In this document: piece by piece, positions 2,617-9,508 of the stretch
How positions within the stretch are numbered: the stretch's first letter is position 1
How the letters are laid out: every line of letters starts with the position of its first letter
Source of the DNA: Escherichia coli
GTDB lineage: Bacteria > Pseudomonadota > Gammaproteobacteria > Enterobacterales > Enterobacteriaceae
Assembly (NCBI RefSeq): GCF_041248615.1
Contig: NZ_CP158426.1
Direction: 5' to 3' (one strand)
Length of the DNA: 64,000 nt
Position numbers and translations under genes: made by a program
The notes under the pieces: model-generated
Seen by the model: only the letters and a program-made list of their open reading frames with translations
The model's database searches: none
What the model was told of the DNA's origin: nothing

Positions 2617-2789
2617 GACTCTGTAGGAGATCGCCAGGAAATAAGCGAATACTTAAAAAAATAAGAATCGTTATTTTCATTTAAAATCAATATATTGCTT
2701 GTCAATTCTTAACTTTCATATGAAATTTTCCTTAAGGCATTGTCTGTAAGCGCCTTGTAAGACTTCGCGAAAAAGACGATTCTATCTTC

Positions 2790-3155
2790 GTCGACAGGGA
2801 GTCAGACAACGAAGTGAACATCAGGATGATGACACTTCTGAAGGACACACCAGGATGGTGTTTCAGGGAAAGGCTTCTGGATGAAGCGAAGAGGATGACG
2901 CAGGACGCGTTAAAGGACACCTCCAGGATGGAGAATGAGAACCGGTCAGGATGATTCGGTGGGTCAGGAAGGCCAGGGACACTTCAGGATGAAGTATCAC
3001 ATCGGGGTGGTGTGAGCAGGAAGCAATAGTTCAGGATGAACGATTGGCCGCAAGGCCAGAGGAAAAGTTGTCAAGGATGAGCAGGGAGCAACAAAAGTAG
3101 CTGGAATGCTGCGAAACGAACCGGGAGCACTGTGAATACAGTGCTCCCTTTTTTT
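2790..3155 (+). ncRNA. csrB: CsrB small RNA (CsrA-sequestering), 5' end approximate
   Basis: About 365 nt with many repeated CAGGATG / AGGA(U)G GGA motifs; ends in hairpin 3123-3148 plus T7 run 3149-3155; located between syd and yqcC. Confidence 0.85.
3123..3155 (+). terminator. Intrinsic terminator of csrB
   Basis: 11-bp stem GGGAGCACTGT/ACAGTGCTCCC, loop GAAT, followed by TTTTTTT. Confidence 0.8.
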
Positions 3156-3200
3156 ATTCCTGCTATCCTTCGCGGCAGTTTTTCTTATTGAGGTTGCTTT

Positions 3201-3530
3201 ATGACCACTCATGACCGCGTTCGTCTCCAGCTGCAGGCGCTTGAAGCATTACTGCGTGAACATCAGCACTGGCAAAACGATGAACCCCAGCCGCATCAAT
3301 TTAACAGTACCCAACCGTTCTTTATGGACACCATGGAACCACTGGAGTGGTTGCAGTGGGTGCTGATCCCGCGAATGCACGATTTGTTAGATAACAACCA
3401 GCCGTTACCGGGCGCTTTTGCCGTCGCACCCTATTATGAAATGGCGCTGGCGACGGACCACCCGCAACGCGCGCTTATTCTGGCTGAGCTGGAAAAACTG
3501 GATGCTCTTTTTGCGGATGATGCGAGCTAA
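3201..3530 (+). CDS. yqcC: DUF446 family protein YqcC
   Basis: 109-aa ORF; synteny csrB-yqcC-truC. Confidence 0.75.
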   Translation: MTTHDRVRLQLQALEALLREHQHWQNDEPQPHQFNSTQPFFMDTMEPLEWLQWVLIPRMHDLLDNNQPLPGAFAVAPYYEMALATDHPQRALILAELEKLDALFADDAS

Positions 3531-4312
3531 TGCTGGAAATACTCTATCAGGATGAATGGCTGGTTGCGGTAAATAAACCCTCCGGCTGGCTGGTTCACCG
3601 CAGCTGGCTGGATCGCGACGAGAAAGTAGTGGTCATGCAAACCGTGCGTGACCAGATAGGCCAGCATGTGTTTACTGCTCATCGTCTGGACCGACCAACT
3701 TCTGGTGTGTTGTTGATGGGATTATCCAGCGAGGCCGGACGGCTGCTGGCACAACAGTTTGAACAGCACCAAATCCAGAAACGTTACCATGCGATTGTGC
3801 GCGGCTGGTTGATGGAAGAAGCAGTTCTGGATTATCCACTGGTGGAAGAACTGGACAAAATCGCTGATAAATTTGCCCGCGAAGATAAAGGCCCACAGCC
3901 AGCAGTGACGCATTATCGCGGTCTGGCGACCGTAGAAATGCCGGTAGCGACCGGACGTTACCCGACCACGCGCTACGGCCTGGTGGAACTGGAGCCGAAA
4001 ACCGGACGTAAGCACCAGCTCCGTCGCCATCTTGCCCATTTGCGCCACCCGATTATTGGCGACAGCAAACATGGTGATTTACGCCAGAATCGCAGCGGTG
4101 CTGAACATTTTGGCCTTCAGCGGTTAATGCTGCATGCCAGTCAGTTGTCATTGACGCATCCTTTTACTGGCGAGCCGCTGACTATTCACGCGGGCCTGGA
4201 CGACACCTGGATGCAGGCGTTATCACAATTTGGCTGGCGGGGTCTGCTTCCTGAAAATGAAAGGGTTGAGTTCAGTGCGCCATCGGGTCAGGATGGAGAG
4301 ATAAGTTCCTAA
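3530..4312 (+). CDS. truC: tRNA pseudouridine(65) synthase TruC
   Basis: 260-aa ORF with RluA-family motifs (HRLDRPTSG); start overlaps yqcC stop. Confidence 0.85.
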
Positions 4313-4329: not shown

Positions 4330-4779
4330 ATGGCGGAAATTGGTATTTTTGTCGGCACTATGTACGGAAATTCGCTGTTAGTGGCGGAAGAAGCGGAAGC
4401 AATTCTGACCGCGCAGGGCCACAAAGCAACGGTATTTGAAGATCCTGAATTAAGCGACTGGCTGCCCTATCAGGATAAGTATGTTCTGGTGGTTACGTCC
4501 ACGACCGGGCAGGGCGACCTTCCTGATAGCATTGTGCCGCTCTTTCAGGGAATCAAAGATACCCTGGGCTTCCAGCCGAATCTGCGTTATGGCGTGATTG
4601 CGCTCGGCGACAGTAGTTATGTGAATTTCTGCAATGGCGGCAAACAGTTCGATGCCTTGTTGCAGGAACAGAGCGCTCAGCGGGTTGGCGAAATGCTGTT
4701 GATTGACGCCAGTGAGAACCCGGAACCGGAAACGGAATCAAATCCGTGGGTCGAACATTGGGGCACGCTGTTGTCCTGA
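4330..4779 (+). CDS. yqcA: Flavodoxin-like protein YqcA
   Basis: 149-aa ORF with flavodoxin-like N-terminus ([12 protein letters not shown]). Confidence 0.8.
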
Positions 4780-4833
4780 TATGTTCAGCGAGCGGTAAAT
4801 GCCGTTTTAGCGGTGCTGAATCGAATCTTTTCA

Positions 4834-4886
4834 GGCAAATGCCAGTAAAAACTGCTTCATAGCGCGGATTTTTACTGGCGTTTGCC
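4834..4886 (+). other. Long imperfect hairpin (18-bp arms) downstream of yqcA; possible terminator or regulatory structure
   Basis: GGCAAATGCCAGTAAAAA ... TTTTTACTGGCGTTTGCC, one mismatch, 17-nt loop; no U-run follows. Confidence 0.4.
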
Positions 4887-5213
4887 TGGAGTCAAGCGAT
4901 CCATTTCATACTCTTCTTTATTTCTTCGTTTTAACCCTTCCTTTCTTGTTCTTGTTTTCATTTCCGTGAAGTGGATTCCACCGTCCAGGGCTAATGCCAA
5001 AATCGGGCCTCATTGAACGCATTAATGTTGTGTTGTTGCACGGTGAGCCGCTATGGCGCGCTTTTTATACTGCTATTGCCAGATATAAACACGCGCCGTA
5101 TTCGGCGAACGACCTATAAAAACGGCAAAAAACACCCTACGTCACCTCTGATTTCCTGGCGATGTCGCAGTCCAGAGTGAGCGTGGCTAACGCGAATTTT
5201 CAGGAGTGCAACA

Positions 5214-6566
5214 ATGAGTTCTTTAAGTCAGGCTGCGAGCAGTGTGGAAAAACGCACAAATGCTCGTTACTGGATAGTGGTGATGTTGTTTATCGTCACA
5301 TCCTTCAACTACGGCGACCGCGCTACGCTCTCTATCGCCGGTTCGGAAATGGCCAAAGATATCGGCCTTGATCCTGTGGGAATGGGCTATGTGTTCTCTG
5401 CCTTCTCATGGGCTTATGTTATCGGGCAGATCCCTGGTGGTTGGTTGCTGGATCGTTTTGGTTCAAAACGCGTCTACTTCTGGTCGATCTTTATCTGGTC
5501 GATGTTTACCTTGCTGCAAGGCTTCGTCGATATCTTTAGTGGATTCGGCATTATCGTTGCCCTGTTTACTCTGCGCTTCCTGGTCGGGCTTGCTGAAGCG
5601 CCATCTTTCCCCGGCAACAGTCGCATTGTTGCGGCCTGGTTTCCGGCGCAGGAAAGGGGAACGGCGGTGTCGATTTTTAACTCCGCTCAATACTTCGCAA
5701 CGGTGATCTTCGCGCCGATTATGGGCTGGCTGACGCATGAAGTGGGCTGGTCACACGTCTTCTTCTTTATGGGCGGTCTGGGGATTGTCATCAGCTTTAT
5801 CTGGTTGAAAGTCATCCACGAGCCAAATCAACATCCGGGGGTAAATCAGAAAGAGCTGGAGTACATCGCCGCGGGTGGCGCGCTGATCAATATGGATCAG
5901 CAAAACACCAAAGTTAAAGTGCCGTTCAGCGTGAAGTGGGGGCAGATCAAACAGTTGCTCGGGTCACGGATGATGATCGGCGTTTATATCGGTCAGTACT
6001 GTATCAACGCCCTGACTTACTTTTTCATTACCTGGTTTCCGGTTTATCTGGTGCAGGCGCGTGGGATGTCGATTCTGAAAGCGGGCTTTGTGGCTTCCGT
6101 TCCGGCGGTTTGCGGTTTTATCGGCGGTGTGCTGGGTGGGATTATTTCCGACTGGCTGATGCGCCGCACGGGATCGCTGAACATTGCGCGTAAAACACCG
6201 ATCGTAATGGGCATGTTGCTGTCGATGGTGATGGTGTTCTGCAACTACGTCAACGTTGAGTGGATGATCATCGGCTTTATGGCGCTGGCCTTCTTCGGTA
6301 AGGGCATCGGGGCGCTGGGTTGGGCAGTAATGGCAGATACCGCGCCAAAAGAGATCAGCGGTCTTTCCGGTGGCCTGTTCAACATGTTCGGTAACATTTC
6401 TGGCATCGTCACGCCAATCGCAATTGGTTATATCGTTGGCACGACTGGCTCCTTTAATGGGGCGCTGATTTATGTTGGTGTTCATGCCTTAATCGCGGTA
6501 CTGAGCTACCTGGTGCTGGTGGGCGATATCAAGCGTATCGAGCTGAAACCTGTCGCGGGGCAATAA
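5214..6566 (+). CDS. gudP: MFS transporter, glucarate/galactarate permease GudP
   Basis: 450-aa hydrophobic ORF; first gene of gudP-gudX-gudD arrangement. Confidence 0.85.
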
Positions 6567-6567
6567 G

Positions 6568-7908
6568 ATGACGACACAATCCAGTCCTGTTATTACTGAT
6601 ATGAAAGTCATTCCGGTCGCCGGGCACGATAGCATGTTGCTTAATATTGGTGGGGCGCATAACGCATATTTCACTCGCAATATTGTGGTACTCACCGATA
6701 ACGCCGGGCATACCGGCATTGGTGAAGCGCCAGGCGGAGAGGTGATTTATCAGACACTGGTCGATGCTATTCCGATGGTGTTGGGCCAGGAAGTTGCGCG
6801 CCTGAATAAAGTGGTTCAGCAGGTGCATAAAGGTAATCAGGCAGCCGATTTTGATACCTTCGGCAAAGGTGCCTGGACTTTTGAATTGCGCGTTAATGCC
6901 GTGGCGGCGCTGGAAGCCGCCTTGCTTGACCTGCTAGGTAAGGCGCTGAATGTTCCGGTCTGCGAACTGTTGGGGCCAGGCAAGCAACGCGAGGCTATTA
7001 CCGTCCTCGGTTATCTGTTTTATATCGGTGATCGGACCAAAACCGATCTTCCTTATCTGGAAAATACGCCGGGCAACCATGAGTGGTATCAATTGCGGCA
7101 TCAGAAAGCGATGAACAGCGACGCCGTTGTGCGTCTGGCGGAAGCCTCACAGGATCGCTATGGCTTTAAAGATTTCAAACTTAAGGGCGGCGTGTTACCT
7201 GGCGAGCAAGAAATCGACACTGTTCGTGCATTGAAGAAACGCTTCCCGGATGCGCGGATTACCGTTGATCCCAACGGTGCATGGCTGCTTGATGAAGCCA
7301 TTTCTCTGTGCAAAGGGCTGAATGATGTTCTTACCTATGCCGAAGATCCATGCGGAGCAGAACAGGGGTTCTCCGGACGTGAAGTGATGGCGGAGTTTCG
7401 GCGGGCGACCGGCTTGCCCGTCGCGACTAATATGATCGCCACCAACTGGCGCGAAATGGGCCATGCGGTGATGCTCAATGCGGTAGATATTCCACTTGCC
7501 GATCCGCACTTCTGGACGCTTTCCGGTGCAGTCCGCGTGGCGCAGCTTTGCGACGACTGGGGGCTGACCTGGGGCTGCCATTCCAACAACCATTTCGATA
7601 TCTCTCTGGCGATGTTTACCCATGTGGGCGCGGCGGCACCGGGTAATCCTACCGCTATCGATACCCACTGGATTTGGCAGGAGGGCGATTGTCGCCTGAC
7701 CCAAAATCCGCTGGAGATTAAAAACGGAAAAATTGCCGTTCCTGATGCGCCCGGTCTGGGCGTGGAACTGGACTGGGAACAGGTACAAAAGGCACATGAG
7801 GCCTATAAACGTCTGCCTGGCGGTGCGCGTAACGACGCGGGCCCGATGCAGTACCTGATCCCCGGCTGGACCTTTGACCGTAAACGTCCCGTTTTCGGCC
7901 GTCATTGA
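6568..7908 (+). CDS. gudX: Glucarate dehydratase-related protein GudX (enolase superfamily)
   Basis: 446-aa ORF, clear paralog of the next ORF (shared HDSML..GAH..FTRNIV..GHTG.GE motifs). Confidence 0.85.
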
Positions 7909-7928
7909 TTTTGAAAAAGGACATAAAT

Positions 7929-9269
7929 ATGAGTTCTCAATTTACGACGCCTGTTGTTACTGAAATGCAGGTCATCCCGGTGGCGGGCCATGACAGTATG
8001 CTGATGAATCTGAGTGGTGCACACGCACCGTTCTTCACGCGTAATATTGTGATTATCAAAGATAATTCTGGTCACACTGGCGTAGGGGAAATTCCCGGCG
8101 GCGAGAAAATCCGTAAAACGCTGGAAGATGCGATTCCGCTGGTGGTGGGTAAAACGCTGGGTGAATACAAAAACGTTCTGACGCTGGTGCGTAATACATT
8201 TGCCGATCGTGATGCCGGTGGGCGCGGTTTGCAGACATTTGATTTGCGTACCACTATTCATGTAGTTACCGGGATAGAAGCGGCAATGCTGGATCTGCTG
8301 GGGCAGCATCTGGGGGTTAACGTGGCATCGCTGCTGGGCGATGGTCAACAGCGTAGCGAAGTCGAAATGCTCGGTTATCTGTTCTTCGTCGGTAATCGCA
8401 AAGCCACACCGCTGCCGTATCAAAGCCAGCCGGATGATAAATGTGACTGGTATCGCCTGCGTCACGAAGAAGCGATGACGCCGGATGCGGTGGTGCGCCT
8501 GGCGGAAGCGGCATATGAAAAATATGGCTTCAACGATTTCAAACTGAAGGGCGGTGTACTGGCCGGGGAAGAAGAAGCCGAATCTATTGTGGCACTGGCG
8601 CAACGCTTCCCACAGGCGCGTATTACCCTCGATCCTAACGGTGCCTGGTCGCTGAACGAAGCGATTAAAATCGGTAAATACCTGAAAGGTTCGCTGGCTT
8701 ATGCAGAAGATCCGTGTGGTGCGGAGCAAGGTTTCTCCGGGCGTGAAGTGATGGCAGAGTTCCGTCGCGCGACTGGCCTGCCGACCGCAACCAATATGAT
8801 CGCCACCGACTGGCGGCAGATGGGCCATACGCTCTCGTTACAATCCGTTGATATCCCGCTGGCGGATCCGCATTTCTGGACGATGCAAGGTTCGGTACGT
8901 GTGGCGCAAATGTGCCATGAATTTGGCCTGACCTGGGGTTCACACTCTAACAACCACTTCGATATTTCCCTGGCGATGTTTACCCATGTAGCCGCTGCTG
9001 CACCGGGTAAAATTACTGCTATTGATACGCACTGGATCTGGCAGGAAGGCAATCAGCGTCTGACCAAAGAACCGTTTGAGATCAAAGGCGGGCTGGTACA
9101 GGTGCCGCAAAAACCAGGATTGGGCGTAGAAATCGATATGGATCAGGTGATGAAAGCCCACGAGCTGTATCAGAAACATGGGCTTGGTGCGCGTGACGAT
9201 GCGATGGGAATGCAGTACCTGATTCCTGGCTGGACGTTTGATAACAAGCGCCCGTGCATGGTGCGTTAA
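7929..9269 (+). CDS. gudD: Glucarate dehydratase GudD
   Basis: ORF 7905-9269; probable start at ATG 7929 ([10 protein letters not shown]...), 446 aa. Confidence 0.85.
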
Positions 9270-9342
9270 GACAGAAAACCAAAACCGGCTCTTTCAGGAG
9301 CCGGTTTGAGATTACTGACGAAGTGGCTTACGGGGACGGTTT

Positions 9343-9445
9343 TCCCCTCGCCCTTTCAAGGAGAGGACCGGGGTGAGGGTAATCATTCGCACTTGCGTTG
9401 GCCTGTTCCCCTCACCCTAACCCTCTCCCCGGAGGGGCGAGGGGA
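9343..9445. repeat. GC-rich composite inverted-repeat extragenic element between convergent gudD and barA
   Basis: Two 37-38 bp copies in inverted orientation (TCCCCTCGCCC..GGGGTGAGGG at 9343-9379; CCCCTCACCC..GGGGCGAGGGGA at 9408-9445), each internally palindromic. Confidence 0.5.
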
Positions 9446-9508
9446 CTGTCTGTGCTGCTCCCAGCATTGGCATTGGACGGAACCTATTTTGACTCGACAA
9501 AACGTCCA

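Follow-up and report, generated by a model that had tools for sequence, protein, structure and literature searches.

The gud operon of Escherichia coli, which was reportedly characterised in 1998, encodes a transporter followed by two enolase-superfamily proteins of equal length. The downstream protein, GudD (GlucD), is D-glucarate dehydratase. The upstream one, glucarate dehydratase-related protein (GlucDRP, or GudX), reportedly has low activity (Hubbard et al. 1998, Biochemistry 37:14369), and has been reported as impaired on both GlucD substrates. Annotation and structures of the gudX-gudD pair are already known, and the locus itself yields nothing new. Comparison across species, however, narrows the role of GudX: the gene is not decaying, its chemistry appears intact, the differences from GudD fall in the active-site lid and gudX is almost never found without gudD, the outcome being a short list of candidate residues for GudX function. 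Because glucarate use matters for enteric growth in the inflamed or antibiotic-treated gut, the role of this second gene has some practical interest.

The gudPXD operon

We analysed a 64,000-nucleotide stretch of E. coli DNA (hereinafter the window), whose features are listed in Table 1. Positions 5000-9500 match E. coli NZ_LT599825.1 at 100% DNA identity, where gudP, gudX and gudD are annotated, and the three genes show 96.6-98.7% nucleotide identity to b2789, b2788 and b2787 of K-12 MG1655. That these genes form the E. coli gudPXD operon, with the identities given here, is virtually certain. The first gene, gudP, encodes an MFS glucarate/galactarate/glycerate transporter, and its stop codon lies 1 nt upstream of the gudX ATG. 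For gudD, the list of open reading frames gives a TTG start at 7905, but annotation places the start at the ATG at 7929. The promoter ahead of the operon's first gene, which is gudT in Salmonella, is described in published work as CdaR-dependent.

Table 1. Features of the gudPXD region and its surroundings in the window.
Feature	Position	Strand	Description
CsrB small regulatory RNA	2799-3158	+	Rfam RF00018, 382.9 bits; upstream of yqcC as in K-12
gudP	5214..6566	+	450-aa ORF; TIGR00893 538.6 bits, Pfam MFS_1; RefSeq name gudP
gudX	6568..7908	+	446 aa; glucarate dehydratase-related protein (GlucDRP; K-12 b2788)
gudX-gudD spacer with AAGGA ribosome-binding site	7909..7928	+	20 nt, TGATTTTGAAAAAGGACATAAATATG, read directly
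gudD	7929..9269	+	446 aa; D-glucarate dehydratase (K-12 b2787)
GC-rich hairpin, gudD/barA interval	9282..9307	.	10-bp stem, 6 G-C pairs; likely terminator
GC-rich imperfect palindromic element, gudD-barA spacer	~9330-9445		…CCCCTCGCCC…GGGTGAGGG… / …CCCTCACCCTAACCCTCTCCCCGGAGGGGCGAGGGG…; one occurrence in the window

The hairpin, which a terminator scan placed on the minus strand with a T-rich tail, lies between the convergent genes gudD and barA and, judging from its sequence, is likely a terminator. The palindromic element in the same spacer may resemble a known intergenic repeat family of E. coli. Long antisense reading frames within the genes (for example 7902-8828 on the minus strand) were judged to arise by chance; RefSeq annotates none there.

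Only 16 of 5428 E. coli records reach at least 99% identity over positions 5000-9500, and dS against K-12 is 0.12-0.15 for gudX and gudD and about 0.05 for gudP and barA; the small number of close records and the contrast in dS would reflect either a rare strain lineage or locally raised diversity. The overall range of dS against K-12 (0.05-0.15) was judged ordinary. Values of 0.35-0.43 against one nominal E. coli locus (L028) looked anomalous; given the ordinary values against K-12, L028 is taken to be simply a divergent genome.

GudX and GudD are colinear enolase-superfamily paralogs

The first-pass annotation described gudX and gudD as adjacent, colinear 446-aa enolase-superfamily paralogs, and end-to-end alignment bears this out. 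BLASTP aligns the two proteins over their full length with 284 identities in 448 positions (63%), 78% positives, 5 gap positions and E = 0, and in a MAFFT alignment identity is 64.1% for amino acids and 65.7% for nucleotides. This similarity lies far above chance, rather than too low for paralogs, and both peptide blocks that had been quoted as common to the pair occur in GudX and GudD alike. Domain composition, the KxK motif, the His-Asp dyad and the metal ligands place both proteins in the mandelate racemase subgroup of the enolase superfamily. In Pfam, GudX matches PF02746 (MR_MLE_N, 35.9 bits) and PF13378 (MR_MLE_C, 173.1 bits); GudD matches PF13378 (163.7 bits), the N-terminal domain being absent from its match list.

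Of the pair, GudD alone clears the NCBI equivalog model for glucarate dehydratase (TIGR03247, curated whole-protein cut-off 828.7 bits), scoring 899.3 bits against 748.5 bits for GudX, in agreement with the earlier remark that only GudD is a proven glucarate dehydratase. PGAP names GudX an 'enolase C-terminal domain-like protein'. The gene names assigned earlier agree with both annotation and structure matches: GudD matches PDB 1EC7 over its full length, and GudX matches PDB 4IL0 and chain C of 4GYP over its full length with 3-4 residue differences. Near-identity to these two structures, all 15 of 15 signature states described below and the gudP-gudX-gudD position assign GudX to the GlucDRP clade. 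The 4GYP entry contains two GudX chains together with the GudD sequence.

Gene conversion between the tandem copies was considered and is rejected on codon usage at identical amino acids, since in every 30-codon window the same codon is used at only about half of the identical residues. The most conserved block has 29 identical residues out of 30, yet only 11 identical codons, and it is kept identical by protein-level selection, not by recent DNA exchange.

GudX keeps the GudD active site and differs around its lid

The residue roles used here are reportedly those of Gulick et al. 2000. We take the GlucD bases to be K207 and H339, the latter acting with D313, and the Mg ligands to be D235, E260 and N289; other contacts are presumably made by H32, T103, Y150, K205, N237, S340, N341, D366, H368 and R422. 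All 16 residues are identical in GudX in the alignment, with GudD K205/K207, H339/D313 and D235/E260/N289 corresponding to GudX K204/K206, H338/D312 and D234/E259/N288. Loss of catalytic residues in GudX is therefore ruled out. Among 67 homologs, 15 of the 16 are invariant and T103 is altered in one sequence only. This conservation suggests that GudX has retained the chemistry. The comparison of active-site residues proposed in the first-pass annotation thus finds base and metal residues neither lost nor changed, so that any change in specificity would have to come from the lid loops.

Fifteen differences are fixed in the GudX clade (GudD numbering): L28I, S29G, R88H, a G inserted after 89, Q102W, D105E, I110V, H111N, T114A, Q140K, E180Q, D294N, S322A, S338C and G418P. 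In addition, a deletion has removed two residues after R107 from GudX. Nine of the 15 sites (positions 28-114) belong to the N-terminal capping domain and surround its H32- and T103-bearing loops. S338C sits immediately before the catalytic His, and the Mg ligand N289 is followed five residues on by D294N. The clade-fixed differences, as read from the alignment, cluster in the capping-domain lid (Q102W, D105E, H111N and two indels) and beside catalytic residues (S338C and D294N).

This distribution bears on the main rival to the role that we favour below (a partner of GudD), namely that GudX is an independent enzyme with a substrate of its own, which would be a different acid sugar or a diacid that GudP transports, its specificity being set by the altered lid after neofunctionalisation. 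In favour of this, the catalytic set is complete, and several clade-fixed changes flank substrate contacts (Q102W by T103, S29G near H32 and G418P near R422). Strong purifying selection and the stand-alone GudX-type genes of Paludibacterium, in a glycerate kinase-gudP cluster, and of Halomonas point the same way. However, over more than 25 years no substrate is known to have been reported, even though structures have been solved, and the near-obligate adjacency to gudD and the shared 4GYP entry point to joint action. We regard a separate substrate as somewhat unlikely.

Purifying selection constrains gudX as strongly as gudD

Comparison of E. coli with seven other enterobacterial genera gave dN/dS values of 0.015-0.042 for gudX, 0.025-0.048 for gudD and 0.020-0.046 for gudP. 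Amino-acid identity of GudX across Enterobacterales is 84-97%, and just 3 sites vary in the GudX clade while being conserved in the GudD clade. Judging by these substitution patterns, GudX is under full purifying selection, no weaker than for GudD, and is not decaying. Relaxed selection or pseudogenisation of gudX is ruled out by the dN/dS values together with the mere three relaxed sites.

These results bear directly on the reading of GudX as a redundant isozyme of low activity, or as a pseudoenzyme in decay, without a distinct role. Such a reading could draw on the score of GudX below the equivalog cut-off and on the fused or rearranged gudX-gudD forms present in databases, but it is already largely refuted by the selection and relaxation results. 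A dN/dS equal to that of gudD, the identity maintained across Enterobacterales and a conserved clade signature with almost no relaxation all stand against it, as does the presence of the locus throughout the species, at least 80% of the 5000-9500 stretch being carried by 5406 of 5426 complete E. coli genomes. We consider redundancy or decay very improbable.

GudX-type genes accompany gudD and gudP, and divergence is asymmetric

In a scan of one genome per species, we found 80 loci, 44 with a GudX-type gene (one whose product is closer to GudX than to GudD) and 36 with GudD-type genes only; one of the 44 is truncated, leaving 43 informative. GudX-type genes occur in Enterobacterales, Orbaceae, one member of the Pasteurellaceae, Paludibacterium, Halomonas and one MAG. 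In 39 of the 43 informative loci gudD lies directly downstream, with a spacer of 1-84 nt; of the remaining four, one has an adjacent but divergent gudD, another is chimeric and the last two lack gudD within 6 kb. A gudP-like gene lies upstream in 38 of the 43. This near-constant adjacency of gudX, gudD and gudP supports a shared pathway.

The two loci in which gudD is absent within 6 kb of the GudX-type gene belong to Paludibacterium yongneupense and Halomonas eurihalina. The former has the order glycerate kinase, pyruvate kinase, glycerate kinase, gudP, GudX-type gene, and its GudX-type protein scores 740.9 bits against TIGR03247, below the cut-off. In Acerihabitans arboris, gudD (2732-4297, minus strand) lies upstream of and on the opposite strand to gudP-gudX (gudX at 5974-7320, plus strand), the sole rearranged order among the paired loci.

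The 36 GudD-only loci come from Pseudomonas, Bradyrhizobium, Bacillus, Paenibacillus, Acinetobacter, actinomycetes and others, and a GudX-type partner was found in none of them. Their proteins are 69-77% identical to E. coli GudD and 62-66% identical to GudX, the corresponding values for single-copy enzymes of distant phyla being 70-77% and 64-66%, and GudD retains the conserved residues of the single-copy enzymes at 14 of 14 signature substitution sites. In a neighbour-joining tree, the GudX clade stands apart from the GudD clade, which holds all single-copy enzymes; being midpoint-rooted, the tree is compatible with an ancient duplication and equally with a later one followed by a fast GudX stem. 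The identities and the tree together indicate asymmetric divergence after duplication, with GudD ancestral in sequence and GudX derived.

The first-pass annotation had proposed subfunctionalisation of the pair, and this claim loses support, since the divergence is strongly asymmetric. A classical partition of GlucD substrates, for example D-glucarate to GudD and L-idarate or an epimerisation to GudX, would accord with the fact that each copy retains the Lys base, which is S-specific, as well as the R-specific His. Against it, GudD stays near the single-copy enzymes and keeps their residues while GudX lies farther away, and GlucDRP is reportedly impaired on both substrates. The asymmetry fits a new or accessory role of GudX better than a symmetric split of function, and we consider subfunctionalisation improbable.

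Fused forms and a parallel gene pair

Pantoea stewartii carries a single gudX/gudD chimera (5992-7335 of its locus) and no second copy. Its first ~270 residues are of GudX type and are followed by a GudD-type C-terminal part, with the breakpoint in the most conserved block, and the gene looks like the product of unequal recombination between tandem paralogs. Fused forms were also seen among database proteins: GudX 1-229 joined to GudD 92-446 (P0007, in 23 E. coli contigs), GudX 1-274 joined to GudD 29-446 (P0004 and P0005), and GudX 1-443 reading through into the first ~200 residues of GudD (P0002 and P0003). These five may be real lineage variants or artefacts of assembly or annotation.

Lucifera butyrica has an independent tandem of an MFS gene and two GudD-type copies (4512-5951 and 5908-7323 of its locus). 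The upstream copy keeps the catalytic residues of the barrel and has a 17-aa insertion and a rewritten lid loop in the 100s, including T103E. Of its 17 departures from GudD-conserved positions, 10 fall at 91-113, which parallels GudX.

GudX as a candidate partner subunit of GudD

In the account that we favour, GudP takes up D-glucarate, and GudD, as a Mg2+-dependent enolase-superfamily enzyme, abstracts the C5 proton through Lys207 or His339 and eliminates the 4-OH to yield 5-dehydro-4-deoxy-glucarate, which GarL, GarR and GarK then convert to glycerate phosphate. GudX would stem from an old asymmetric duplication after which the whole catalytic barrel was kept and a remodelled capping-domain lid became fixed, and it most likely acts in the same pathway as the partner subunit of a GudD-GudX hetero-oligomer, with little activity alone. 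We infer this partner role from gene identity, paralogy, residue conservation, selection and synteny, which were observed directly. It is favoured because the unchanged barrel, the altered lid, the gudD-like constraint, the adjacency to gudD and the shared crystal entry are found together; the co-deposition of GudX and GudD in 4GYP makes a hetero-oligomer at least as likely as a separate substrate. Taken as a whole, with operon, old duplication and GudX as a subunit of GudD, the account seems to us about evenly balanced between right and wrong.

Indirect support for the partner role comes from S. Typhi, in which a point-mutated GudD impairs growth on glucarate and ygcY (gudX) is described as apparently intact. 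Three points argue the other way. The 4GYP co-crystal, known here from its entry sequences alone, is no proof of a physiological complex; the GudX-type genes of Paludibacterium and Halomonas suggest that such proteins can work alone; and a complete catalytic set is unexpected in a purely structural subunit. A Tn-seq result from Dickeya solani, in which gudX is a fitness gene on galactarate, was set aside as evidence on GudX, since garL, garR and garK follow gudX in the same orientation and polar effects could explain it. Literature searches on GlucDRP, b2788 and the PDB codes returned nothing relevant, and those on gudX mostly unrelated papers.

More speculatively, GudX-type proteins could represent a conserved, 'lid-rewired' class of partners, with an intact barrel, an altered lid loop in the 100s and obligate pairing with a canonical dehydratase whose activity, stability or substrate range they tune; the arrangement of transporter, lid-diverged copy and canonical copy would then have evolved independently in the Firmicute Lucifera butyrica. 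We regard this generalisation as unlikely, if worth stating.

Comparison with known systems

The closest described protein is K-12 GudX (b2788, GlucDRP; PDB 4IL0 and 4GYP chain C), of which GudX in the window is the ortholog, with the same length and operon position. The two differ at 4 of 446 residues (from K-12 to the window, A2T, D58E, V164L and E185D), all conservative and none at a catalytic or clade-signature site. Likewise, GudD in the window is the ortholog of K-12 GudD (b2787; PDB 1EC7 series), from which it differs by two amino acids (S171K and E394Q). With K-12 GudD, GudX has in common its fold, its length and all catalytic residues, but it is set apart by 63-64% identity, the 15 clade-fixed differences, two lid indels and its score below the TIGR03247 cut-off.

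Outside E. coli, the protein of PDB entries 3N6H, 3N6J and 3PFR, deposited as 'mandelate racemase/muconate lactonizing protein', scores 787.6 bits against GudX and 625.2 bits against GudD. It carries the signatures of the GudX clade, including GCHSNNH, and is therefore assigned to that clade, although it comes from another organism and is further from GudX in the window than are the E. coli entries (787.6 versus about 1040 bits). In Pseudomonas, Bacillus, Acinetobacter and Bradyrhizobium, the single-copy glucarate dehydratases are 70-77% identical to E. coli GudD, belong to the same family and have the same catalytic residues.
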